Virus record (IMG/VR): IMGVR_UViG_3300017743_000004
Span: 4,621 to 68,620 of that record
DNA: 64,000 nt
Source: a virus
Direction: 5' to 3' (one strand)
A program made the translations under genes and the position numbers. The notes beneath the pieces are model-generated. The model was given only the letters and a program-made list of their open reading frames with translations, was not told where the DNA came from and ran no database searches. Positions 3,490-51,772 of this stretch are shown here, piece by piece (the stretch's first letter is position 1; every line of letters starts with the position of its first letter).

Positions 3490-3960
3490 ATGTGGCAGTA
3501 TAAACAACAAGTTATAGAATCAGTGGAAGATGTTCCTAAAGATGTTTTTGGTTTTATTTATAGAGTAGTACATGAACCCACAGGACAAATTTACATAGGT
3601 AAAAAAGTACTTTATTTTAACCTAAAACGTAAACTCACTAAAAAAGATTTAGAGATTTACGAGGGTGTTCAGGGTAGAAAACCTAAATTTAAAGTAATAC
3701 AAAAAGAATCAGATTGGAAAACTTATTATGGTTCTAATACCCAAATCAAACAATGGGTTAAAGAAGGAAAACAAGAAGAATTAAAAAGAGAAATTTTAGC
3801 TTGGGGATTGGATAAAAAGCACTTAACTTACCTCGAAACAAAGTACTTGTTTATGTACGAGGTATTAGAAAAAGAAGAATTCCTTAATGATAACATATTA
3901 GGGAAGTTCTTCAAAAAAGATTTTGATGACAAACCAACTGCTACTCTCATTAACCAATAA
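3490..3960 (+). CDS. GIY-YIG family endonuclease
   Basis: GFIYRV...IYIGKK, YYGS, conserved E (YLETKY) and C-terminal N (LNDNI). Confidence 0.75.
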   Translation: MWQYKQQVIESVEDVPKDVFGFIYRVVHEPTGQIYIGKKVLYFNLKRKLTKKDLEIYEGVQGRKPKFKVIQKESDWKTYYGSNTQIKQWVKEGKQEELKREILAWGLDKKHLTYLETKYLFMYEVLEKEEFLNDNILGKFFKKDFDDKPTATLINQ

Positions 3961-4855
3961 AGTTTTAGGAGAAGGCAAACCCACAGCAAGAAATAATTAC
4001 GCGTATAGCTGTCCATTTTGCAATCACCATAAACCAAAACTAGAGGTTAACTTAACAGAAAATAAACAGGGGTTCCATCCTTGGCATTGTTGGGCATGTG
4101 ATAAAAAGGGCAAAACAGTCCTATCACTCTTTAATCAATCTAAGACCCACCCAGATTTTATTTTAGAATTAAAAACTATAGTAAAATACGATTCGGGTAA
4201 TACCACAGAAAAGAAACGAGAACAATTAAAGTTACCTGATGATTTTGTTTCTTTAAAATCTGTTACTAAAAGCGATATTATTGGCAGACACGCGCTTGCA
4301 TATTTAAAAAAGAGAAATGTCACTATAGACGATATTATACGCCATAACATTGGTTATTGCACTAAAGGACGGTATAAAAACATGGTAGTTATACCATCCT
4401 ATAATGAAGATGGATCTTTAAATTTTTTCGTAGGAAGATCATTTACCGAATCTCATATTAAATATCTTAATCCATCTATTTCTAAAGATTTCATCCCATT
4501 TGAAAACACTATTAATTGGAATTTACCTATTATTATATGTGAAGGGATGTTTGATGCTATTTCTATAAAAAGAAATACCATACCATTATTAGGTAAAATA
4601 TTTCCTCAACCTTTATTAAAAAAACTTGCTTCCTCTCAAGTACAAAAAGTATACATTGCCCTAGATAAAGATGCTTTAAAACAGTCTTTAAAATTCTGTG
4701 AGTATCTCCTAAATGAAGGGAAAAAAGTATATTTGGTTGATTTAGATCAAAAAGATCCAAGTGAGATGGGTTTTGAGGCTTTTACTAATCTGGTTCAGAA
4801 AACCAACTCCTTAACATTTTACGATTTAATGGAGAAAAAAATAAGTTTATTATGA
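3923..4855 (+). CDS. DNA primase (Zn finger + TOPRIM)
   Basis: CPFCNH...HCWAC zinc-binding domain; YLKKR; ICEGMFDA and ALDKDA TOPRIM motifs; KDPSE. Confidence 0.9.
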   Translation: MMTNQLLLSLTNKVLGEGKPTARNNYAYSCPFCNHHKPKLEVNLTENKQGFHPWHCWACDKKGKTVLSLFNQSKTHPDFILELKTIVKYDSGNTTEKKREQLKLPDDFVSLKSVTKSDIIGRHALAYLKKRNVTIDDIIRHNIGYCTKGRYKNMVVIPSYNEDGSLNFFVGRSFTESHIKYLNPSISKDFIPFENTINWNLPIIICEGMFDAISIKRNTIPLLGKIFPQPLLKKLASSQVQKVYIALDKDALKQSLKFCEYLLNEGKKVYLVDLDQKDPSEMGFEAFTNLVQKTNSLTFYDLMEKKISLL

Positions 4856-5630: not shown

Positions 5631-6428
5631 ATGATTTCTCTAGTTTCACTTTTAAAAGAAGCTGTTTCGTCCCCCAAAGCTATTATATTAGCAGGCGCAC
5701 CTGGAGCAGGAAAAGGTTCAGTATTAAAAGGACTAGATTTATCAGGCTTAAAAACATTTAACTTAGATAATAAGTTTATTGAATTATTAAAAACATCAAA
5801 TGTATCCCTTGATTTAAAATCAGGGGACGCAGAATCAAGATCTAAGGCGGCACAAGCAATGGCCGCCGCAACTAAAAATCTTAAAACAGAACTCATCCCC
5901 CAGGCTATTGAAAATAAACAATCCTTTATATTGGATGGTACTGCAGCTTCCTCTAAACAAACTTTAGAATTAAAAAGTCAATTAGAAAAAGTAGGGTATG
6001 AGGTGATGATGTTGTATGTGTATACTGATTTAGAAACATCTTTAAAACGAAATCAAGAACGATTTGAAAAGTCAGGTGGGGAAGATAGATCATTGATGCC
6101 TTCCATTGTTTTAACTACATGGAATAGTGTAACTAAAAACTTTGATACATATAAGAACGAATTTGAAAATTTTGTTTCTGTAGCAAACACAGGTAAAAGT
6201 GAGACTTTAAAGGACATTAAACAAATTTTAGATAAGTATGTTGAACCTTTTAGACCTACAGATACTAAACCTAAAACTGACAAAGAAGAAGAACGTTCTA
6301 GAAAACAAGCCGAAAAGCTTAATCAAGAAGTACAACAATTTTTATCCTCGGATAAAGTAAAAGATATAATTGACTCTTCTGTTTCTTCAGAGGAAGCTCA
6401 ATCTAAAATTAACGCATTCCTTAAATGA
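5631..6428 (+). CDS. zeta-toxin/AAA_33-like P-loop kinase with N-terminal leader
   Basis: GAPGAGKG Walker A; FILDGT; YVYTDLETSLKRNQER lid; leader MISLVSLLKE. Confidence 0.75.
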   Translation: MISLVSLLKEAVSSPKAIILAGAPGAGKGSVLKGLDLSGLKTFNLDNKFIELLKTSNVSLDLKSGDAESRSKAAQAMAAATKNLKTELIPQAIENKQSFILDGTAASSKQTLELKSQLEKVGYEVMMLYVYTDLETSLKRNQERFEKSGGEDRSLMPSIVLTTWNSVTKNFDTYKNEFENFVSVANTGKSETLKDIKQILDKYVEPFRPTDTKPKTDKEEERSRKQAEKLNQEVQQFLSSDKVKDIIDSSVSSEEAQSKINAFLK

Positions 6429-9400
6429 AAAAACTCGTAGAATCTTTAGTAAATGCCGTTTTAGAGGCAGATGAAAAAGTTATTGGAATCTATGGTGGTG
6501 GATTTAAACCACCTACAGCAGGCCATTACGAGGTAATTGAAAATATCCTTAAAACTAACCCCCAGCTAGATAAACTTTACATAGCCGTAGGGCAAAAAGA
6601 AAGAGATGGTATTACACAAGCAGATTCACTTTTAGTGTTTGATGTTTATAAAAAATATTTTCCATTTAAAGTAGAATTTGTACCTGTAAAATCAGTTTAC
6701 AATTATATTAAAGATTTTGTTGAGGAAAATCCTGATAAAACAGTAATTGCTTTTAGAGGAGCGAGGGAAGGACAAGAAGAAGATTTAGTGGATAACGAGA
6801 CATTTAAAATGTTTTTAGATCGTTACGCACCTGATGTTGAATATAAGCAAGTTAAAACATTAATAACTGGTGTTTCAGGTACTAAAGCTAGACAAGCATT
6901 AAAATCAGGTAATAAAGAAAAATTCTTTAAATATTTACCTACATCTTTATCAAATCTAGATAGAGATAAAATTTACGATATTTTAACTGCTACAGTAGAG
7001 GAAAATGCTAAAAAAGCAGCTATAAATGCCTACTCAAGAGAATTAGCCTTAGGGTTAGAAGAACAACAAGGTAAAACCGGATACAGAGCCGGCTCTATAA
7101 ACCCAAAACTTCCTCAAGAAAGATTAAAAGACAGAGGATTTGCTATTAATCGCTCAACTACAGGTTTATTAGGTACAGGATTTTATTTTTACGGAGATAA
7201 AGATCAAGCTGTAACATCCACCAAAGATGATGGGAGAGATAAATACACAGAAATTGATCTATCTCAATATAAACTCTTTACCCCCTCTAACCCAGAAAAA
7301 TTCTATAATGTAATTAAGAATTTAACACTGTTGTTAACAGATCTTATTTTTGATGAGAAAGTAAATTTTGAAGATGAAAATGTAACTAAACAATTAGATT
7401 TATACTCAAGTTATTTATCTAAAGAATTAGGATTATCTGATTTAGAAATTGAATTAGCAGCACAATCTTTTATAGATGATGTTTCCCAATCTAAAGATGG
7501 TGTTTTATTATCTAATCGTATCTTAAGTGATTATGATGGTATAGATTTAACAGGTACCTCATTAGATAATTTTGCAGTTGGTAGTTTAATATTTGATGGT
7601 AAGCTAAAGCCTGGATCTTATACTTCAACTAAAATACAAGATTTAGAGGAAGTTGGTGAAGCTTCTCAAAAACCTTACAAATGGTCTAAATCAGAATCTT
7701 CTCGTTTTCCTGGTACTATAGATTATAGTTTTATAACAGATAAAGATACCGAATATCAAGCTTATTTTGCCCCTACCTCACCAGGATTTTATGAATTTGG
7801 GTTTAGTGCAGAAGATGGTGATTTATCAGCAACTATAAATAAAGGTGAATTGTTTAGAGTAATGTCTACCATAGTAGATATTATGAAAGATTTTGTAACA
7901 ACAACACCATGGGATAGAATTGAATTTGAAGGATCTAAAGACTTTGAAAGAGTCGAGAAGGGCGTAGAAGATAAGCGTAGAGATAAACTATATAGAGCCT
8001 ATCTTAAAAAGAACCTCTCCAACTTCCCAAATATAGATGTTTTCGTACAAGGTGGTGTAACTTACTTATACAATGAAGATGAGAACAGTTTAACTGAAGT
8101 TGGTGAAGCTACTCAAAAACCATATAAATGGACAGTAAAAAGAAGTTACTGGGAGCCAACATTAATGGAAATTACTTATAGTTTTACTACAGATAAAGGT
8201 ATAAAATATGAAGCATTATTCTACGAAAATGCAGATTATCGGTTTGATTTTCTGTTTTATCCTGAAGATGGAACTGCACTGGATGTTGTAAATAAAGGTG
8301 AATTGTTTAGAGTAATGTCTACCATAGTAGATATTATGAAAGACTTTATAAAAAAAGAAAAATGGAGTGTAATAGAATATTCCTCAGCTAAACAATATGA
8401 GGATGATGACCGTAGAGAAAAATTATATACTGCTTACTTAAAAAAGAATCTCCCTGATGGTATTAGAGCAGAGGAAATGGGTGATGGAGATATTATGTTA
8501 ACAAACCTAAATTTAAAGGAAGCAGACCCTAAAAAAGGTACAGGTAAAAAGCCAAAAGGCAGTGGGCGCAGATTATACACAGATGAAAACCCAAAAGATA
8601 CAGTAAGCATCAAATTCTCTACTAGACAAGATATTGTAGATACCTTAAATAAAAAATCATTTAAAGCTAAATCACATGCTCGCCAATCCCAGATTATCAA
8701 CCTTATTCATCAAAGGGTAAGAGCAGCATATGGTAGAGCAAAAGATCCTGCTGTTAAAAAACGTTTAAAAACAGCTTTAGATTATATTACAAAACGTAAA
8801 GAAGCATCTAAGAAAAAAACCCAACGTTTAAAAAAAGTAAGCGAAGGTGATACTTATGAAAAAATGGCTGCTAAAGGTAAAAAAGCAGGTAATTTAAAAC
8901 AGGGTACTGTTAGAAAAAGATTAGGCATTAAAAAAGGTGAAAAAGTTCCAATGTCTAAAATTAATAAAGAAATCTCCCGTTTAAAGAAAATGGACAAAGA
9001 TAAAGATAAAAAAGGTGTACAATTGGGGGATAAGAACCAAAAATATTATAAAGCCCTACAATTATCTAAAACTTTAAAGTCCACAACTAACATTAGAGAA
9101 GATATGAATGATACAGATGGGGAATTCCAAAAATTATTATCATCTTTAAGTGATTTTTTAAAACAAAAATTAGAATTAAAATCATTACCAAACTTAGAAT
9201 ATATTGATGATGATGTTGAAAACGCTGAAAATATTCTCGGGAATACTGCTTATTATAATCCTAATACCTCTACTATTGTTTTATACACCAAAGGAAGACA
9301 CCCTAAAGACATATTAAGGAGCTACGCTCACGAAATGATACATCATAAGCAAAACGAGGATGGTAAATTCGATGGCAGTATTAACACTTTTAATATCAAC

Positions 9401-9490
9401 CAAGACGACTATCTAAAACAAATAGAGGAGGAAGCATATTTAAACGGAAATATTTTATTTAGAAGTTGGGAAAACACTGTAGAAAAATGA
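6425..9490 (+). CDS. multidomain polyprotein: HxGH nucleotidyltransferase, ADP-ribosyltransferase-like module, two tandem repeats, two basic modules, HExxH metallopeptidase
   Basis: GGGFKPPTAGH and SGTKAR (cytidylyltransferase-like); GYRAG...LGTGFYF (ART-like, weaker call); duplicated EVGEAxQKPYKW module; AHEMIHHKQ...EEEAY zincin motif. Confidence 0.7.
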   Translation: MKKLVESLVNAVLEADEKVIGIYGGGFKPPTAGHYEVIENILKTNPQLDKLYIAVGQKERDGITQADSLLVFDVYKKYFPFKVEFVPVKSVYNYIKDFVEENPDKTVIAFRGAREGQEEDLVDNETFKMFLDRYAPDVEYKQVKTLITGVSGTKARQALKSGNKEKFFKYLPTSLSNLDRDKIYDILTATVEENAKKAAINAYSRELALGLEEQQGKTGYRAGSINPKLPQERLKDRGFAINRSTTGLLGTGFYFYGDKDQAVTSTKDDGRDKYTEIDLSQYKLFTPSNPEKFYNVIKNLTLLLTDLIFDEKVNFEDENVTKQLDLYSSYLSKELGLSDLEIELAAQSFIDDVSQSKDGVLLSNRILSDYDGIDLTGTSLDNFAVGSLIFDGKLKPGSYTSTKIQDLEEVGEASQKPYKWSKSESSRFPGTIDYSFITDKDTEYQAYFAPTSPGFYEFGFSAEDGDLSATINKGELFRVMSTIVDIMKDFVTTTPWDRIEFEGSKDFERVEKGVEDKRRDKLYRAYLKKNLSNFPNIDVFVQGGVTYLYNEDENSLTEVGEATQKPYKWTVKRSYWEPTLMEITYSFTTDKGIKYEALFYENADYRFDFLFYPEDGTALDVVNKGELFRVMSTIVDIMKDFIKKEKWSVIEYSSAKQYEDDDRREKLYTAYLKKNLPDGIRAEEMGDGDIMLTNLNLKEADPKKGTGKKPKGSGRRLYTDENPKDTVSIKFSTRQDIVDTLNKKSFKAKSHARQSQIINLIHQRVRAAYGRAKDPAVKKRLKTALDYITKRKEASKKKTQRLKKVSEGDTYEKMAAKGKKAGNLKQGTVRKRLGIKKGEKVPMSKINKEISRLKKMDKDKDKKGVQLGDKNQKYYKALQLSKTLKSTTNIREDMNDTDGEFQKLLSSLSDFLKQKLELKSLPNLEYIDDDVENAENILGNTAYYNPNTSTIVLYTKGRHPKDILRSYAHEMIHHKQNEDGKFDGSINTFNINQDDYLKQIEEEAYLNGNILFRSWENTVEK
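7836..8343 (+). repeat. 55-bp perfect direct repeat inside two diverged ~149-aa modules
   Basis: TAAATAAAGGTGAATTGTTTAGAGTAATGTCTACCATAGTAGATATTATGAAAGA at 7836-7890 and 8289-8343. Confidence 0.95.
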
Positions 9491-10071
9491 TTAGTTTATT
9501 AGAAATATACGAGCAAGAATCCCAAAAATTAGATCCCTCTAAAGTTGTAATCTTTTCAGATATGGATGGAGTGCTTACAGACTTTGATAAGTACTATGAG
9601 GAGATTACAGGCGTAAATAAAAATTCTAAAATAGCTAAAGACAAAGATATGTTTTATGAGCTATTAAATGATGCCCTAGATAGAAAAGGGATGGACTATA
9701 GAGATTTCTTTGCCCAAATGCCTCCCTTAGCAGACTATATGGAGTATTGGAATTATATTACCTCATTAGGTCGTCCTGTGTATTTGCTAACAGCCCCTAT
9801 GAGACCACCTGAGTCAAGAGATGGAAAAGATGATTGGGCTAAAGAATATTTAACCGGAGTTAAAAAAGTATTATTTTTTGGAAGCAATTATAAACAAAAA
9901 GTAATGGATATTTACTTTAAAATTCCAAAAGATGACCCCTCTCGTAAAAACTTAATACTTATTGACGACAGAGAAGGTAATATTACAAATTGGAGAAAAG
10001 CAGGTGGAACAGGTATACTACATACAAGCGCAGCCGATACTATCTCCCAGCTTAAAAAATTAGGTTTATGA
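9487..10071 (+). CDS. HAD-family 5'(3')-nucleotidase-like phosphatase
   Basis: DMDGVLTDF motif I, LLTAP motif II, K, LIDDR motif IV, AGGTGILH. Likely start ATG 9487 (ATGA overlap), giving leader MISLLEIYE. Confidence 0.85.
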   Translation: MISLLEIYEQESQKLDPSKVVIFSDMDGVLTDFDKYYEEITGVNKNSKIAKDKDMFYELLNDALDRKGMDYRDFFAQMPPLADYMEYWNYITSLGRPVYLLTAPMRPPESRDGKDDWAKEYLTGVKKVLFFGSNYKQKVMDIYFKIPKDDPSRKNLILIDDREGNITNWRKAGGTGILHTSAADTISQLKKLGL

Positions 10072-12589: not shown

Positions 12590-12596
12590 TATTTAT
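12589..12596 (+). promoter_or_regulatory. putative late promoter core ATATTTAT
   Basis: TAATATTTATAAACAAAA overlapping stop codon; ATG at 12611. Confidence 0.7.
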
Positions 12597-12610
12597 AAAC
12601 AAAATTAATC

Positions 12611-17523: not shown

Positions 17524-17531
17524 ATATTTAT
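17524..17531 (+). promoter_or_regulatory. putative late promoter core ATATTTAT
   Basis: CATATTTATAAACAAAA; ATG at 17545. Confidence 0.7.
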
Positions 17532-17544
17532 AAACAAAATTAAA

Positions 17545-18107: not shown

Positions 18108-19472
18108 ATGGCAGAAAAACTAGTAATCGTAGGAGCAGGTGTAGCAGGTGTAAACGCAGCTACCAAACTCGTAGACAATGGCTATCCCGGTGAAAACATC
18201 ACCATCATTGATATGGGAAAATCCCCATATGAAAGAAAACCCGAAGAAGTAATGACAGGCTTCCTTGGAGCAGGTGGTTGGAGCGATGGTAAACTTACTT
18301 ACCATACAGCAATCGGAGGTCATATGTCTAAGTATTGTGGAGAGGATAAGGCAATGGAATTGTTTGATGAGGTAATCAACAACTTTAAACGTTTCCACCC
18401 TAAACCAGAGGAAGTACAATGTTCAGACCCTCAAGCAGAACCAGATTTTATTAAACCATATTTTGGTTTACGTTTATTCCCTGTGTGGCACGTTGGTACA
18501 GATTATCTACATGAGATTGGTAAAAATTGGTATGATTATCTAGTTGATAAAGGTGTTAAATTCGAATGGGAGACTAAAGTAACTGCAATTGATTTTGAAG
18601 ATCAAATTGTATCTATAGGAACCGTAGATGAAATTGAATATGATCGCCTAATGTTTGCCGTCGGTAAATCAGGTATCGATTTTGGTAAACAACTAGCGGA
18701 CGATTATTCATTCCCTACTGAACCTAAACCAGTTCAAATAGGAGTACGATTTGAAGCCCCACAAAAACACTTTCAAAAACTAATCGATATTTCATACGAT
18801 TTTAAATTGTATCGTAAATTCGAAGATAAAGGAGTTTCCCTTCGTTCATTCTGTACAAACAACAATGCTGCTTATGTTGCCCTTGAAGAAACATATGGGG
18901 ATTATTCGTACAACGGACATGCTAAAAAAGGAGAAGATTACAGAAACGATATGACCAATTTTGGTATCTTGATGGAAATTAATGGTATTGAAGAACCATT
19001 CAAATGGTCAAGAGAGCTAGTTTCTAAAGTACAAAAACATTCTGTAGTTCCTGGTGAAGGGTATGGTGGAAACAAAGCTCAAGGACGTCACCAAGCCAAA
19101 TACAAAGCAGGTCTGTATTATACCCCTGATAGTGAAAAATGGAAATCTAAAACCTCAGAAGGGGATTGGGTTAAAGCACATTATATTAATGAAAATGGTT
19201 TACAACAAGTTAAAGATCATTTCCAAGGTTACTATTCATACATTGATGATTTTATCGAGGATATGAAAAAAGTATTCCCTACACTTGGGGATGATTGGGG
19301 CGTTTATATTCCCGAGGTAAAATATCTCTCCCCAGAACCACTTGTAGACTATAGCAACCTAGCACTTGAACAATTTGACAATGTGCACTTCGTAGGAGAT
19401 GCTCTATCTGCTCGTGGTATTACAGTTTCCGGAGCACAAGGAATTTATGTTGCGGAAGGGTTGTTATCCTGA
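18108..19472 (+). CDS. FAD-dependent oxidoreductase
   Basis: IVGAGVAG Rossmann motif; GFLGAGGWSDGKL; IGVRFE; SFCTN; C-terminal FVGD...RGITVSG. Confidence 0.85.
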   Translation: MAEKLVIVGAGVAGVNAATKLVDNGYPGENITIIDMGKSPYERKPEEVMTGFLGAGGWSDGKLTYHTAIGGHMSKYCGEDKAMELFDEVINNFKRFHPKPEEVQCSDPQAEPDFIKPYFGLRLFPVWHVGTDYLHEIGKNWYDYLVDKGVKFEWETKVTAIDFEDQIVSIGTVDEIEYDRLMFAVGKSGIDFGKQLADDYSFPTEPKPVQIGVRFEAPQKHFQKLIDISYDFKLYRKFEDKGVSLRSFCTNNNAAYVALEETYGDYSYNGHAKKGEDYRNDMTNFGILMEINGIEEPFKWSRELVSKVQKHSVVPGEGYGGNKAQGRHQAKYKAGLYYTPDSEKWKSKTSEGDWVKAHYINENGLQQVKDHFQGYYSYIDDFIEDMKKVFPTLGDDWGVYIPEVKYLSPEPLVDYSNLALEQFDNVHFVGDALSARGITVSGAQGIYVAEGLLS

Positions 19473-20337: not shown

Positions 20338-20344
20338 TATTTAT
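20337..20344 (+). promoter_or_regulatory. putative late promoter core ATATTTAT
   Basis: Overlaps TGA; ATG at 20363. Confidence 0.65.
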
Positions 20345-20362
20345 AATCAAAACCTTTATCTA

Positions 20363-23109: not shown

Positions 23110-23116
23110 TATTTAT
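23109..23116 (+). promoter_or_regulatory. putative late promoter core ATATTTAT
   Basis: Overlaps TAA; only 5 nt before portal ATG. Confidence 0.65.
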
Positions 23117-23121
23117 AAGAT

Positions 23122-24984: not shown

Positions 24985-24991
24985 TATTTAT
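24984..24991 (+). promoter_or_regulatory. putative late promoter core ATATTTAT
   Basis: Overlaps TAA; ATG at 25005. Confidence 0.65.
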
Positions 24992-25004
24992 AACAAACTG
25001 GAAA

Positions 25005-30636: not shown

Positions 30637-32304
30637 ATGGAATTAGTAAACAACTTAGTCAACGAATCCGCAGAGTCGTTTAGAAACATGCAAAGCGACG
30701 CTGCAAGATTAGCTGGTAAGTGGGAAAAGACAGGTTTACTTGAGGGCTTAGATAATGAGCTTGAAAAGAACAACATGTCACTTATCCTCGAAAACCAAGC
30801 TAAGCAATTATTGAACGAAAGTTCATTAACAGGTACTGGTGGTACCTTCGCAGCAGGAACTGGTGAGCAGTATGCCTCTGTAGTCTTACCTATGGTAAGA
30901 AAGATTTTTGGACAGGTAGCTGCCCAAGAATTCGTATCTGTTCAACCAATGAATTTACCTTCAGGTCTGGTATTCTTCTTAGATTTCCAATATGGAACTA
31001 GTAAGACTCCTTTCTCAGCTGGTGATTCGCTTTATGGAAACACTGGTTCCGACCAGTTCCCATTCTCAACTGCTGAATCTAATCTGAATCAAGCAAACAC
31101 TGGTGGATTATATGGTGCAGGTAAGTTCTCTTACTCTACAAATAATCATACTGCTTCTACTGGTATTACTTCTGCCTCAGCAACTTTTGCAGATGTTAAT
31201 TTTGACTCCAGATTATCTTCATCAATTGTAAATGGAGATATTGTTAAATTAACTGTTGGAACTGCTAGAACTACTTTAGCGGATTTAGATAAAGAAGCTG
31301 TAAGAAGCTTTATTATCTCCTCAGGTTCTAATGTTACCTCAGATAATATCCTTCCTGCTTTTACAAAGTATGATGAAGGTGCTAATACTGTAACTTTCTT
31401 TACTACTGGATCGGATATTACAATCCACCAAACTAGTTCATATGTAGTAGAATACAGTAAGCAAACCAAAGATAACGCAAGAGGTGATTTCGAAGCAGGT
31501 GCTGCATTTGCTGTACCTAATGCTCAGTCTGCTGCTAATATCTCAATCCCAGAAATTAATATCGGAATGAGATCATTAGGTATTATTGCTAAGACTAAAA
31601 AGCTGAAGGCAGTATTCACTCCTGAACTCGCTCAGGACTTGAACGCTTACCAAGCTTTAGATGCCGAAGCTGAAGTTACCAACATCATGTCTGAGTACAT
31701 TTCCTTAGAAATTGACTTGGAAATTCTTGATATGTTGATGGCTGATGCTTTAACAACTGAGTTCTGGTCTGCTAAGAACAACAGAGTAATTAATGATGCC
31801 AAGACTGCTTTCGAAGCTGAAGGAACAAACGGATTCTACAACACACAGGGTCAGTGGTTCCAAACATTAGGTACCAAGCTTCAGAAGGTATCTAACAAGA
31901 TCCACCAATTAACTTTAAGAGGTGGTGCCAACTTCATGGTAATCTCTCCAACTGTAGCTACTGTTATTGAGTCAATCCCAGGATTCGCCTCAAACTCTGA
32001 TGGTGATGCTGCTAACATGGAGTACGCGTTTGGTGTACAAAAGGCAGGTACTTTGAACAGCCGCTACACTGTGTACAAGAACCCTTACATGAATGAAAAT
32101 ACCATTCTGATGGGTTACAGAGGTACTCAGTTCTTAGAGGCAGGTGCTGTATTCGCTCCTTATGTACCGTTGATCCAAACTCCATTAGTATACGATCCTG
32201 ACACGTTCGTACCTAGAAAAGGTCTCTTAACACGCTACGCTAAGAAGATGTTAAGACCAGAATTCTACGGTAAGGTCTTCGTGAATGGATTGAACACTCT
32301 CTAA
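30637..32304 (+). CDS. major capsid protein (T4 gp23-like)
   Basis: KW..TGLL, ILENQ, VSVQPMNLPSGLVF, KLKA.FTPELAQDL, EIDLEIL, APYVPL, F.P.KG..TRY. Confidence 0.96.
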   Translation: MELVNNLVNESAESFRNMQSDAARLAGKWEKTGLLEGLDNELEKNNMSLILENQAKQLLNESSLTGTGGTFAAGTGEQYASVVLPMVRKIFGQVAAQEFVSVQPMNLPSGLVFFLDFQYGTSKTPFSAGDSLYGNTGSDQFPFSTAESNLNQANTGGLYGAGKFSYSTNNHTASTGITSASATFADVNFDSRLSSSIVNGDIVKLTVGTARTTLADLDKEAVRSFIISSGSNVTSDNILPAFTKYDEGANTVTFFTTGSDITIHQTSSYVVEYSKQTKDNARGDFEAGAAFAVPNAQSAANISIPEINIGMRSLGIIAKTKKLKAVFTPELAQDLNAYQALDAEAEVTNIMSEYISLEIDLEILDMLMADALTTEFWSAKNNRVINDAKTAFEAEGTNGFYNTQGQWFQTLGTKLQKVSNKIHQLTLRGGANFMVISPTVATVIESIPGFASNSDGDAANMEYAFGVQKAGTLNSRYTVYKNPYMNENTILMGYRGTQFLEAGAVFAPYVPLIQTPLVYDPDTFVPRKGLLTRYAKKMLRPEFYGKVFVNGLNTL

Positions 32305-32327: not shown

Positions 32328-32355
32328 AAGAGCCGCTTTTTGCGGCTCTTTTTTT
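32328..32355 (+). terminator. Rho-independent terminator after capsid gene
   Basis: AAGAGCCGC-TTTTT-GCGGCTCTT followed by T-run. Confidence 0.9.
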
Positions 32356-32373: not shown

Positions 32374-32381
32374 ATATGTAT
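32374..32381 (+). promoter_or_regulatory. late promoter variant ATATGTAT
   Basis: TAATATGTATA just after the terminator; ATG at 32406. Confidence 0.5.
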
Positions 32382-32405
32382 AGGTGAATAAGTAAATGTA
32401 AAAAA

Positions 32406-33317
32406 ATGTTGCAAACACCATCTCAATTAACGGTTCCGAGTTATTTAATGAACTTCCCGTTTTCGCTATCTACAGATCATCCTAATAATGTTTGGATGAA
32501 AGAAATGAGTCCCGAGGACTTACAAATAAACCAATCTAGAGCGTATCGCCAATTTTTAGAATTATATAATTTTTTAGCAGGTGGTTCTTTAGTTTATCTA
32601 TTACCGACTGAAGATAACTTCCAGGATTTAGTTTATACAGCTAATCTAGGAATTTATCTACCTCATTTAAAAGATAATAATATTTTATTATCAAACTTTA
32701 CTTCAATCCCTCGTCAAGGGGAAGAGTTAATTGGAGAAAAGTTTTTACAACAAATGGGTTATAATACTTTTATCACCCCTACAAAATGGGAAGGTGAAGC
32801 CGATTTAAAATATTTGTACGATAATGTTTATATAGGGGGATATGGAATCCGTTCACAAAAAGAAACTTATGAGTGGATGGAAAAAGAATTTGATATGAAC
32901 ATTATTAAGGTTGAAATGGTAGATGAATATTTGTATCATTTGGACTGTAGTATTTTCCCGTTATCTAACGATAAAACTATGGTTTGTACGTCGTTGTATA
33001 ACGATGAGGAAATAGCGCATATAGAACAATATACTGAGATAATCCCCGTATCTGAAGATGATGCAATGGGGGGTATTACAAATTCCGTAAGAATGGGTAA
33101 TACTATTTTATGTGCCTCAAACATTGTAGAGTTAAAACGTACAGATGAGAATTACGATCACGAAAAAAATAAACTTGCTACTTTAGAAAAAATATGTGCC
33201 CATGAGGGAATGGAGCCCGTTATATTTAATTTATCAGAATACATGAAATCAGGAGCAATGCTCTCATGTATGGTTATGCATCTAAATTACGTTGATCAAG
33301 TAAAATCTCTTCTATAA
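32406..33317 (+). CDS. amidinotransferase / guanidino-modifying enzyme, ArgZ-like arginine dihydrolase
   Basis: DLVYTAN, RQGEE, WEGEAD, GYGIRS, YHLDC, SEYMKSGAMLSC (catalytic Asp, His and Cys present). Confidence 0.85.
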   Translation: MLQTPSQLTVPSYLMNFPFSLSTDHPNNVWMKEMSPEDLQINQSRAYRQFLELYNFLAGGSLVYLLPTEDNFQDLVYTANLGIYLPHLKDNNILLSNFTSIPRQGEELIGEKFLQQMGYNTFITPTKWEGEADLKYLYDNVYIGGYGIRSQKETYEWMEKEFDMNIIKVEMVDEYLYHLDCSIFPLSNDKTMVCTSLYNDEEIAHIEQYTEIIPVSEDDAMGGITNSVRMGNTILCASNIVELKRTDENYDHEKNKLATLEKICAHEGMEPVIFNLSEYMKSGAMLSCMVMHLNYVDQVKSLL

Positions 33318-33318
33318 A

Positions 33319-34074
33319 ATGGCAAAAGCTTTACAAGAGTGGTTGGATACAGATGTTAAAAATCTAAAGAAAAAACCAATTAAGGATCTATCAAGTATAT
33401 TCTTCTTTAGAGACCCTATTAGACCACAACTTATAGACCCAGATAGATTCTATTCCCCAGCAGATGGAACTATTCTATACCAAAAAATAGTAGATTATCC
33501 AAACGAACCTATTGTAGAGATTAAGGGAGTAGATTATACATTACAGGATGTTCTACAAGATCCTGACTATAACCAACCAGCATTAGTTATAGGAATTTTT
33601 ATGTCATTTTATGATGTTCATGTAAATAGAATTCCTTATGGAGGTGTTTTAACTTACCAAGCTTTAGATGCAATCGAGAGTTATAATAAACCTATGTTGG
33701 CTGTAGAACATGATATTCTAAGTAGGACGATCAATCCTAACAATATGGGTTATTTAACTAACAACGAGAGAATGTGGAATAAAATATATTCACCTTCCAT
33801 AGATTACACATATTATTTAGTTCAAATTGCGGATGAAGATGTAAATGTGATTTCACATTTTACGAATGATCAAAATGAAATTTTTGCACAAAACGAAAGG
33901 TTTTCTTTTATTAGATGGGGTTCTCAGGTTGATTTAGTTTTACCACTTGATGAAAGGTTTGACTTTCAAACGTTACAAAACGTAACAGACCACGTTGAAG
34001 CTGGAGTAGATCCATTAGTAGAAATTAAACCAACAGAACATGAGCTCAAATCACCATACCGATCCTATTTTTAA
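33319..34074 (+). CDS. phosphatidylserine-decarboxylase-fold pyruvoyl enzyme lacking a membrane anchor
   Basis: FFFRDP.R, SPADG, IFMSFYDVHVNR.P..G, NER, QIA, FIRWG-SQVDL self-cleavage site. Confidence 0.85.
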   Translation: MAKALQEWLDTDVKNLKKKPIKDLSSIFFFRDPIRPQLIDPDRFYSPADGTILYQKIVDYPNEPIVEIKGVDYTLQDVLQDPDYNQPALVIGIFMSFYDVHVNRIPYGGVLTYQALDAIESYNKPMLAVEHDILSRTINPNNMGYLTNNERMWNKIYSPSIDYTYYLVQIADEDVNVISHFTNDQNEIFAQNERFSFIRWGSQVDLVLPLDERFDFQTLQNVTDHVEAGVDPLVEIKPTEHELKSPYRSYF

Positions 34075-34726
34075 CGAGAAAAAAAGACCTAAAAATCCTA
34101 TTAAGTTTAATTTATCTTTAAATAGCGAGCAAAAAGAAGCAAAAAAGCATATTATAGAAAATCCTGTTACAATTCTAAGAGGAGCAGCAGGTTCAGGTAA
34201 AACTTTAGTGGCGTGTCAAGCTGCTTTAGATATGTTATTTACTAAACAGGTCGAAAGAATTATAATTACTCGCCCTACTGTCTCAAAAGAAGAAATAGGA
34301 TTCCTCCCAGGGGATATTAAAGAAAAAATGGATCCCTGGTTAGCACCTGTCCATCAAAATCTATTTAAACTTTATAATAAAGATAAAGTAATGAAAGAAA
34401 TAGATGAAGGTAGGATTGAAATCATCCCATTTGCATTTATGCGAGGTATTACATTTACAGAAAGTTTTGTAATTGTAGATGAAGCCCAAAACGTAACTCA
34501 TAACCAAATGGAAATGGTTATAGGACGTTTAGGAAGAAATTCAAAAATGGTAATTTGTGGTGATGTTTCTCAAATTGATTTACGTTATAAAAAGGAATCA
34601 GGGTTTGCTTTTTTACCAAATATTGAAGCACAAGTTGAAGGCTTTAAGTTAATAACTTTAAGACATAACCATAGACATGATATAGTTCAGCCAATTTTAG
34701 ATATTTATTCTAATTATAGAGATTAA
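34040..34726 (+). CDS. phoH: PhoH family ATPase
   Basis: GAAGSGKT, ITRP, GFLPGD..EKMDPW, FMRG.TF, VDEAQN, GDVSQID, RH.IV. Confidence 0.95.
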   Translation: MSSNHHTDPIFNEKKRPKNPIKFNLSLNSEQKEAKKHIIENPVTILRGAAGSGKTLVACQAALDMLFTKQVERIIITRPTVSKEEIGFLPGDIKEKMDPWLAPVHQNLFKLYNKDKVMKEIDEGRIEIIPFAFMRGITFTESFVIVDEAQNVTHNQMEMVIGRLGRNSKMVICGDVSQIDLRYKKESGFAFLPNIEAQVEGFKLITLRHNHRHDIVQPILDIYSNYRD

Positions 34727-39007: not shown

Positions 39008-39014
39008 TATTTAT
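39007..39014 (+). promoter_or_regulatory. putative late promoter core ATATTTAT
   Basis: TAATATTTATAACAAAA overlapping TAA; ATG at 39026. Confidence 0.7.
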
Positions 39015-39025
39015 AACAAAAACCA

Positions 39026-46312: not shown

Positions 46313-46320
46313 ATATTTAT
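46313..46320 (+). promoter_or_regulatory. putative late promoter core ATATTTAT
   Basis: Intergenic, before sheath ATG at 46339. Confidence 0.7.
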
Positions 46321-46338
46321 AATCAAAAATACTAAAAA

Positions 46339-48075: not shown

Positions 48076-48083
48076 ATATTTAT
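48076..48083 (+). promoter_or_regulatory. putative late promoter core ATATTTAT
   Basis: TAATATTTATAAACAAAA before tube ATG at 48098. Confidence 0.7.
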
Positions 48084-48097
48084 AAACAAAATATAAA

Positions 48098-48648: not shown

Positions 48649-48678
48649 GTTTTCGTATATTTATAAACAAAATGTTTT

Positions 48679-49709: not shown

Positions 49710-49733
49710 CAATATTTATAACAAAATACCCTA

Positions 49734-51758: not shown

Positions 51759-51765
51759 TATTTAT
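51758..51765 (+). promoter_or_regulatory. putative late promoter core ATATTTAT
   Basis: TAATATTTATAAACAAAATG. Confidence 0.7.
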
Positions 51766-51772
51766 AAACAAA

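Follow-up and report, generated by a model that had tools for sequence, protein, structure and literature searches.

Two neighbouring genes of a marine T4-like phage, ORF A and ORF B, formed a conserved module that recurred in at least three phage groups and in bacteria. We suggest, with moderate confidence, that this module converts arginine in two steps into a short cationic amine, most simply by way of ornithine into putrescine. The genes were found in IMG/VR record IMGVR_UViG_3300017743_000004, a linear and incomplete viral contig of 68.6 kb, of which a stretch of 64 kb (positions 4,621 to 68,620) was analysed and is referred to here as the window. The first open reading frame (ORF), ORF A, encodes a pentein-fold protein similar to the arginine-hydrolysing domain of cyanobacterial ArgZ and AgrE. 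ORF B encodes a member of the phosphatidylserine decarboxylase (PSD) family that has no membrane anchor and is predicted to be a self-cleaving pyruvoyl-type enzyme. An earlier note, made from the letters of the window, had proposed the two genes as a candidate polyamine pathway. Its observations were confirmed and its interpretation was partly supported, strengthened by the conserved pairing of the genes.

The earlier note had offered adjacency in related genomes as a check on its reading, and the two genes did co-occur. Both were present in 77 of the 80 related IMG/VR loci, and in 76 of these 77 the gap between them was 12 nt or shorter; one related locus carried a 757-nt insertion between the genes. 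Where the pentein gene was missing (three loci), the PSD-like gene began 8-61 nt from the contig end. Pattern scanning of 185,579 species genomes, using a profile of the PSD-like proteins, yielded 72 loci in bacteria or metagenome-assembled genomes (MAGs). They came from Actinomycetota (Amycolatopsis, Saccharothrix, Saccharopolyspora, Streptomyces, Streptosporangium and others), Verrucomicrobiales, Gammaproteobacteria, Sulfurimonadaceae, Latescibacterota and further phyla, and their PSD-like proteins were 45-66% identical to ORF B over nearly the full length. The fetched stretch contained a pentein gene, 44-69% identical to ORF A, at 70 of the 72 loci. It lay directly downstream on the same strand in 65 loci and on the other strand in two, and the gene order of the phage was found in three. 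Of the two remaining loci, L103 lacked the pentein outright and L157 ended too early to tell. The trees of the two genes recovered the same major clades, and their pairwise identities were correlated (r = 0.91, over 946 non-independent pairs).

Two of the loci taken from bacterial assemblies, L087 and L088, were about as similar to the window as the phage loci from IMG/VR were, and L088 also included a capsid gene. Both look like phage contigs that were binned into MAGs. A third MAG-assigned locus, L089, carried the pair as well. The MAG of L088 was labelled Flavobacteriales, which is a weak hint at the host.

Among 50,697 phage records, relatives of ORF B were detected in 45 (39 from Campylobacter phages and 6 from Bacteroides phages) and relatives of ORF A in 47 (40 Campylobacter, 6 Bacteroides and 1 Xanthomonas). 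Both genes were present in the six Bacteroides phage records, and in Bacteroides phage DAC19 they were adjacent. In Campylobacter phage NCTC12673 (Fletchervirus) the homologues were about 42 kb apart and had been annotated separately, with no stated link, as "phosphatidylserine decarboxylase" (gp085) and "Aminidotransferase" (gp044); each was 39% identical to its counterpart in the window over about 94% of the length. Neither gene was found in CP220, a phage of the sister genus Firehammervirus. At 90% identity, environmental sequences formed 2,791 clusters of PSD-like proteins and 2,077 of penteins. There were 203 pentein representatives at E ≤ 1e-30, and a search of the ESM Atlas returned only clusters named "PSD family protein", most of them viral. 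Six PSD-like proteins longer than 440 aa were considered as possible fusions of the two genes, and the two that were compared with ORF A (P0241 and P0243) contained no pentein. PADLOC assigned the two window proteins and their two Sulfurimonas homologues to none of its anti-phage defence families.

The ArgZ/AgrE-like character of ORF A, which the earlier note had recognised from motifs, was supported by sequence and by fold. In HMMER searches the only solved structures matched by the ORF A sequence at E ≤ 0.01 were AgrE and ArgZ (2e-23 to 5e-21). The AlphaFold model (mean predicted local distance difference test score, pLDDT, 92.2) had its best Foldseek match in the same proteins (E 7e-21, 24% identity), with a template modelling (TM) score of 0.80-0.81 by query length and of 0.88-0.89 by target length against the N-domain chains of ArgZ. 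Weaker matches were to DDAH (1e-12; DDAH-1 and PaDDAH, 16% identity) and arginine deiminase (3e-9), and to the amidinotransferases SxtG (5.5e-11), HsvA (5.6e-10) and AGAT (1e-8), at 10-13% identity. No Pfam family, amidinotransferases included, was matched at E ≤ 0.01, and in PHROGs the protein belonged to phrog_12759 (2e-62), a family of unknown function.

All of the motifs named in the earlier note were present and aligned with ArgZ/AgrE residues: DLVYTAN (74-80), RQGEE (103-107), EGEAD (129-133), GYGIRS (145-150), YHLD (177-180) and Cys288 in the sequence LSC. In the HMMER alignment, N22, D65, N71, R90 and E118 of ArgZ corresponded to N28, D74, N80, R103 and E129 of ORF A, and R139, H168, D170 and C264 to R149, H178, D180 and C288. 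These positions were invariant or at least 90% conserved among 25 phage and bacterial homologues. They include the counterparts of the catalytic Cys264, His168 and Glu118 of the ArgZ/AgrE N-domain, of Asn71, and of the substrate-binding Asp65, Arg90 and Arg139. We take R103 and R149 to be the equivalents of the residues that, in DDAH and ArgZ sites, hold the alpha-carboxylate of the substrate. The conservation of these two arginines argues for an amino acid rather than agmatine as the substrate of ORF A. The equivalent of Asn80 has been probed in ArgZ, where the N71S variant traps a reaction intermediate (PDB title).

In other respects ORF A differs from ArgZ and AgrE (PDB 6JUY, 6JV0 and 6LRF), which belong to the cyanobacterial ornithine-ammonia cycle. 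It is a stand-alone protein whose 303 aa span only the N-domain of the 703-aa AgrE, with no fused C-terminal ornithine cyclodeaminase-like domain, and it has a helical insert of about 25 residues (248-267) ahead of the final module. It is paired with a decarboxylase and not with a cyclodeaminase. Some homologues had unusual architectures. Five (P0336, P0353, P0372, P0381 and P0387) were interrupted by inserts of the LAGLIDADG or intein type; metabolic enzymes rarely contain inteins, and this is a hint that the pentein gene is important in these genomes, which are probably of phages. In P0282 the pentein was fused to an inorganic-pyrophosphatase-like domain. At locus L090 of Streptoalloteichus hindustanus, the pentein (8795-9694) had an arginine at the position of Cys288 and lacked other conserved residues, and the adjacent PSD-like gene was apparently intact. 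An amidase-signature gene lay directly upstream of this pair.

ORF B matched the Pfam family PS_Dcarbxylase (PF02666) over residues 27-229 (8e-25; 88.1 bits, cut-off 22) and fell into phrog_12670, a PHROGs family of unknown function. It stayed under the cut-off of all 13 NCBIfam PSD/Asd models, the best score being 69.2 bits against a cut-off of 183. The earlier note had described PSD catalytic motifs, a G|S cleavage site and the lack of a hydrophobic N-terminal anchor, and each of these was borne out. In an alignment with five canonical PSDs, short and long, taken from bacterial genomes that carry the pair, Asp49, His101 and Gly201-Ser202, which make up the Asp-His-Ser triad and the predicted cleavage site, were invariant, and the motifs FFRDPxR, SPADG and DVHVNRxP were kept. 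The maximum hydropathy over 19 residues within the first 60 residues of ORF B was 0.31 (0.18-0.83 in four bacterial homologues). By comparison, hydrophobic stretches precede FFRDP in the canonical short PSDs L160, L161 and L165, reaching a hydropathy of 1.69 in L161. The family also had an insert of about 30 residues. Where canonical short PSDs have QIAGxVARRI, the PSD-like proteins have QIAD(Y/E)DV(D/N), so that basic residues are replaced by acidic ones; such a switch would fit a cationic substrate.

Several lines of evidence separate ORF B from the housekeeping enzyme. In the tree, the PSD-like clade was set apart from the canonical short PSDs by a branch with 100% support and a length of 3.2. 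Of the 16 pair-bearing genomes, 15 held a canonical PSD (140-222 bits) beside the PSD-like gene (72-103 bits). Because the canonical PSD coexists with it, and because of the separate clade, the missing hydrophobic N-terminus and the acidic switch, we consider the ORF B family to be a paralogue and not the housekeeping PSD, as judged from sequence comparison. The model of ORF B (pLDDT 87.9) had only distant Foldseek matches (TM scores of about 0.45-0.5), namely E. coli PSD (3e-6; Psd structures 6L06 and 7CNW), PsiD (2.8e-4) and Ao-ADC1 (9jer; 9.4e-4).

The use of a PSD fold on a soluble amino acid, which the earlier note had supposed to be a repurposing, has precedents and is not new. Ao-ADC1 from Aspergillus oryzae (PDB 9JER) and PsiD (8X4Q) both have the PSD fold and form their pyruvoyl group by self-cleavage, and their substrates are free amino acids instead of lipids. 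PsiD decarboxylates tryptophan, according to PDB titles, and Ao-ADC1 is described as decarboxylating arginine with no PSD activity (PMC12904898). Owing to the latter precedent, arginine decarboxylation is a real rival to ornithine decarboxylation for ORF B. These enzymes are fungal, have 440-480 aa with extra N-terminal helical regions, and are 10-15% identical to the ORF B model. Neither is known to us to pair with a pentein enzyme.

The bacterial neighbours of the pair lent support to a polyamine theme. A MATE exporter was encoded beside it in 19 of the loci checked, from Campylobacterota, Gammaproteobacteria, Latescibacterota, Cryosericota and Verrucomicrobiales (among them L100, L101, L106, L107, L110, L112, L115, L116, L124, L126, L148, L155 and L156, and in Verrucomicrobiales L128, L133 and L146). 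In the first four groups the MATE gene followed the pair. In Verrucomicrobiales it converged on the pair, and in the three loci a solute-binding protein followed; the only one scanned in NCBIfam, from L133, was PotD/PotF-like at 182 bits, below the cut-off. In Actinomycetota an ABC exporter came after the pair, and then a PAD_porph gene in L094, L097 and L121 (282-344 bits). Two of the actinomycete PAD_porph genes were scanned in NCBIfam and scored 242-279 bits as agmatine deiminases, again below the cut-off. A nonribosomal peptide synthetase (NRPS) C-A-T module followed in two other actinomycete loci (L151 and L154), and a GNAT gene in others. In DAC19 a divergent PAD_porph gene (L159 6339-7391; MT074139.1 106338-107390) was found elsewhere in the genome than the pair, scoring 87 bits in Pfam and just 32 against the model for agmatine deiminase. 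In its text, a 2023 virus survey reports that chloroviruses were the only viruses in which AIH homologues were detected (PMC9992855).

A further pointer came from a gene fusion. In P0309 (440 aa), one of 150 pentein representatives, a SpeD-family AdoMet_dc N-domain (34 bits, with the TSH motif) was fused to the pentein. SpeD homologues are described as including pyruvoyl ornithine and arginine decarboxylases (PMC10407285), so in P0309 a non-homologous pyruvoyl decarboxylase would stand in for the PSD-like partner; we treat this as a lead only. Taken together, the exporters, the agmatine-deiminase-like genes, the PotD-like protein and the SpeD-pentein fusion support the polyamine theme. 

From the folds, conserved catalytic residues, missing anchor, pairing and neighbours observed here, we infer substrates, an order of steps, a product and a benefit to the phage. 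ORF A, with Cys288, His178 and its acidic residues, would attack the guanidino carbon of free L-arginine, most likely as a dihydrolase releasing ornithine, ammonia and CO2 and less likely as a deiminase giving citrulline. ORF B would cleave itself between Gly201 and Ser202 to form the pyruvoyl cofactor, and would remove the alpha-carboxyl group of the first product through a pyruvoyl Schiff base. The end product would be putrescine or, with citrulline as the intermediate, N-carbamoylputrescine, which enzymes of the host would convert further. Transcription of the pair in the phage would probably be late and start from a separate promoter-like motif past the capsid terminator. The phage might benefit from a greater diamine supply in the infected cell for DNA condensation, translation or the mobilisation of arginine nitrogen; in bacteria the cassette would be coupled to an exporter. 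More specifically, and as a possibility that we put forward tentatively, a stand-alone ArgZ-type dihydrolase and a soluble PSD-fold ornithine decarboxylase may constitute an undescribed route from arginine to putrescine, mobile together with an exporter and captured as a late-expressed module by at least three phage groups.

A number of findings weigh against this proposal. The identity of ORF A to ArgZ is just 24%, and its NCBIfam scores were far under the cut-offs: 89.4 bits for Arg_dihydro (cut-off 450) and 86.9 for the bifunctional ArgZ (1025), with a similar 92.6 for the M. tuberculosis-type DDAH (NF045659; 300). All 25 homologues matched the same models below the cut-offs, with a best E-value of 1.1e-30. 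Given the low scores and the equal DDAH score, the product of ORF A may be either ornithine or citrulline. The carboxylate-binding role proposed for R103 and R149 is drawn from the DDAH literature. The only characterised PSD-fold enzyme of polyamine metabolism, Ao-ADC1, is described as decarboxylating arginine and not ornithine (PMC12904898), and the agmatine-deiminase-like genes of the actinomycete operons and of DAC19 fit an agmatine intermediate at least as well. The fusion P0309 is a singleton on one contig of 4.3 kb, and searches of viral and metagenome contigs did not recover it a second time. The five phage genomes searched yielded no further polyamine gene, with no match to AdoMet_dc, Orn_Arg_deC_N, Spermine_synth or CN_hydrolase in any of them. 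The cassette is rare in bacteria (1 of 201 genomes in the class of the Sulfurimonas genome), and its occasional position beside NRPS genes would also fit a role in specialised metabolism. Five of the 16 genomes with the pair also had SpeA (three above the cut-off and two split). A gap-filling role was rejected, as the pattern with SpeA was not cleanly complementary; because SpeA coexists with the pair in these five genomes, we regard the pair as an accessory route.

Four other explanations were considered. Campylobacter and Bacteroides make putrescine by way of agmatine and N-carbamoylputrescine, and the pair could feed this host route if ORF B were a pyruvoyl arginine decarboxylase producing agmatine, with ORF A acting in parallel on arginine or another guanidino compound, or as an agmatine deiminase or dihydrolase. 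Ao-ADC1 provides a PSD-family precedent (PMC12904898) that the ORF B model does match, and the PAD_porph genes of three actinomycete operons and of DAC19, together with the amidase gene in L090, point the same way. However, the match to Ao-ADC1 was weaker than that to E. coli PSD and had only 15% identity, and the PAD_porph genes fell below the agmatine-deiminase cut-offs and were not found in four of the five phage genomes searched. ORF A, moreover, keeps the two arginines that we take to hold a carboxylate, a group that agmatine does not have. We consider an arginine-decarboxylating ORF B the main rival, though rather unlikely. A different arginine product is unlikely too in our view, with ORF A as an amidinotransferase or a DDAH-type hydrolase and ORF B supplying or consuming the amine, and with an exported metabolite or a nonribosomal peptide building block as the product in bacteria. 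Amidinotransferases convert arginine and an amine into ornithine and a guanidino-amine, and ORF A does resemble SxtG, the polyamine amidinotransferase HsvA and AGAT in fold, while the DDAH model scored as well as the ArgZ model. An exporter was always near the bacterial pair, NRPS modules were present in L151 and L154, and the distribution is rare and patchy. The NCTC12673 record also notes a similar protein, AF210249_12, which we believe to be part of an actinomycete antibiotic gene cluster. Against such a product stand the Foldseek E-values, in which ArgZ/AgrE, clearly the nearest of the solved structures, leads by 8-12 orders of magnitude, the conservation of Asn80, the lack of a match to the Pfam amidinotransferase family at the threshold used, and phage genomes that carry the pair with no exporter or NRPS.

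That ORF B is a true, peripherally acting PSD that boosts phosphatidylethanolamine during infection, with ORF A unrelated to it, appears very unlikely. The Pfam score is above the cut-off, the catalytic residues and FFRDPxR are common to ORF B and canonical PSDs, no structure matches better than that of E. coli PSD, and in GenBank the gene is annotated as a PSD in Fletchervirus records. However, all NCBIfam PSD equivalog models, with cut-offs of at least 183 bits, were far from being reached, no membrane segment is present, acidic residues replace basic ones beside the active-site strand, and almost all pair-bearing genomes already have a canonical PSD. Unrelated functions are also improbable given the strict association with a guanidino hydrolase gene, seen in 70 of 72 bacterial loci. 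Still less probable is the alternative raised in the earlier note, that the pair makes or attaches an amine for hypermodified phage DNA or for virion proteins. Fletcherviruses do carry the pair and have DNA in which deoxyguanosine (dG) is fully substituted by deoxyinosine (dI) (PMC13091555, PMC10516641), the pair sits among late and structural genes, and QueC homologues were found in three of five long related contigs. Yet QueC was not found in the other two, one of them rated 100% complete, and it was not linked to the pair; the idea was dropped. Guanidino hydrolysis cannot, on chemical grounds, turn guanine into hypoxanthine, and the bacterial neighbours are exporters and polyamine-type genes instead of DNA-modification genes. 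The deazaguanine and dI papers, as far as their available text goes, do not implicate the genes of the pair; they assign 2'-deoxy-7-amido-7-deazaguanosine (dADG) to CP220/Firehammervirus and dI to Fletchervirus (PMC13091555, PMC10516641). The points counted against each make both the lipid and the DNA-modification roles unlikely. The QueC homologues themselves (121-123 bits; L084, L085 and L086) indicate that some members of the lineage may carry 7-deazaguanine DNA modification.

Both superfamilies are known already, and fungi provide known cases of a PSD fold that acts on a free amino acid. What appears to be undescribed is the conserved pairing, the anchorless PSD-like clade of bacteria and phages, and the occurrence of the pair across three phage groups; in open-access papers and preprints, supplements aside, no paper was found that describes or links the two genes. 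Functional parallels are the SpeD-derived pyruvoyl ornithine and arginine decarboxylases of phages and bacteria (Li et al. 2023), which are described as phage-encoded and as raising the supply of putrescine or agmatine (PMC9992855, PMC10407285). They have the AdoMetDC fold, whereas ORF B has the PSD fold. The same virus survey reports no arginase homologue in phage, and the terms phosphatidylserine, dihydrolase, Campylobacter and Bacteroides do not occur in its main text, supplements aside (PMC9992855).

If the pair does make putrescine from arginine, it would be a new biosynthetic route in polyamine metabolism, and ORF B would represent a new enzyme family, a PSD-fold amino-acid decarboxylase of bacteria and phages. 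The set of virus-encoded polyamine enzymes would be widened. An abundant marine T4-like lineage, the Campylobacter Fletcherviruses and Bacteroides phages would be able to make their own DNA-condensing diamine and to free arginine nitrogen independently of any host polyamine enzyme. The long-standing annotations "phosphatidylserine decarboxylase" and "amidinotransferase" would be corrected in Campylobacter phages, which are candidates for biocontrol. The environmental family concerned is large, and the combination of the bacterial cassette with an exporter suggests an unstudied system for amine secretion or for the handling of pH or nitrogen.

The features of the locus are listed in Table 1. 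The window has a G+C content of about 32%, all of its long ORFs are on the + strand, and among its products are T4-like proteins of the head, the tail and replication (Pfam and PHROGs). Near-identical sequence was present in marine viral and seawater metagenomes.

Table 1. Features of the ORF A-ORF B locus (positions in the window)
Feature	Position	Strand	Remarks
Gp23-type major capsid gene	30637..32304	+	Pfam Gp23 2.4e-69; directly upstream of ORF A
Intrinsic-terminator-like hairpin after capsid gene	32328..32350	+	9-bp stem with 6 GC pairs, 5-nt loop, then TTTTTTT
TATGTATA	32375..32382	+	One mismatch to late-promoter-like TATTTATA; 31 nt before ORF A ATG
ORF A (303 aa), ArgZ/AgrE-like pentein-fold protein, putative guanidino-group hydrolase	32406..33317	+
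His178 codon of ORF A	32937..32939	+	Aligned with ArgZ His168; invariant in the alignment of 25 homologues
Cys288 codon of ORF A	33267..33269	+	Aligned with ArgZ nucleophile Cys264; kept in at least 90% of 25 homologues
ORF B (251 aa), PSD-family protein without anchor, predicted proenzyme of a pyruvoyl-type decarboxylase	33319..34074	+
Predicted self-cleavage site of ORF B (codons of Gly201-Ser202)	33919..33924	+	Ser202 = pyruvoyl precursor; invariant in homologues and canonical PSDs
PhoH-like ATPase gene	34040..34726	+	Pfam PhoH 3e-64; first 35 nt lie within the end of ORF B

The genomic setting was conserved, with the capsid gene upstream of the pair in 75 of the 80 related IMG/VR loci and PhoH downstream in 79. 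As the earlier note had it, the two genes are one nucleotide apart, the single base lying between the stop codon of ORF A and the ATG of ORF B, and they stand behind a variant of a late motif just past the capsid terminator. The position 32374, which it gave as the start of the pair, is that of the motif and not that of the ORF. The exact motif, TATTTATA, occurred 12-25 nt 5' of 12 other genes of the window, mostly structural. In the 74 related loci with enough upstream sequence, the 120 nt before the pentein gene contained TATGTATA in 40 and TATTTATA in 26. Since these motifs recur upstream of the pentein gene, the variant is real and conserved in position. RNA-library contigs from four libraries, 90-95% identical to the window, spanned the pair; one joined the capsid gene to the pentein gene and another ran from the end of the capsid gene through the pentein into the PSD-like gene. 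These contigs come from relatives and may reflect DNA carry-over, and they were not counted as evidence of transcription.

The motif has a longer form, ATATTTATAA(A/C)CAAAA, with TATTTATA as its core on the + strand. Copies of the core lie at 12590-12597, 17525-17532, 20338-20345, 23110-23117, 24985-24992, 39008-39015, 46314-46321, 48077-48084, 48658-48665, 49713-49720 and 51759-51766. The genes behind the ATATTTATAA word include those for portal, sheath, tube and baseplate proteins, with the same spacing of 12-25 nt to the start codons, and the word is probably the late promoter of this phage lineage. It reads as the reverse complement of T4 TATAAATA.

Some other genes of the window deserve mention. 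A 454-aa FAD/NAD(P)-binding oxidoreductase (18108-19472; phrog_12409, "dehydrogenase") had the TATGTATA variant at -33, as ORF A has; its matches were to generic FAD/NAD-binding families and were confined to the dinucleotide-binding N-terminus. At the start of the contig (contig positions 267-5498) there is one long reading frame (about 1,744 aa), the C-terminal part of which occupies positions 3-881 of the window. The part within the window had no family match, and the frame presumably encodes a giant fibre or structural protein. Two further genes lay among the replication genes: a Zeta-toxin/AAA_33-type kinase-fold protein at 5631-6428 (Pfam, 2e-20) and a SegE-type GIY-YIG homing endonuclease at 3490-3960 (2e-24).

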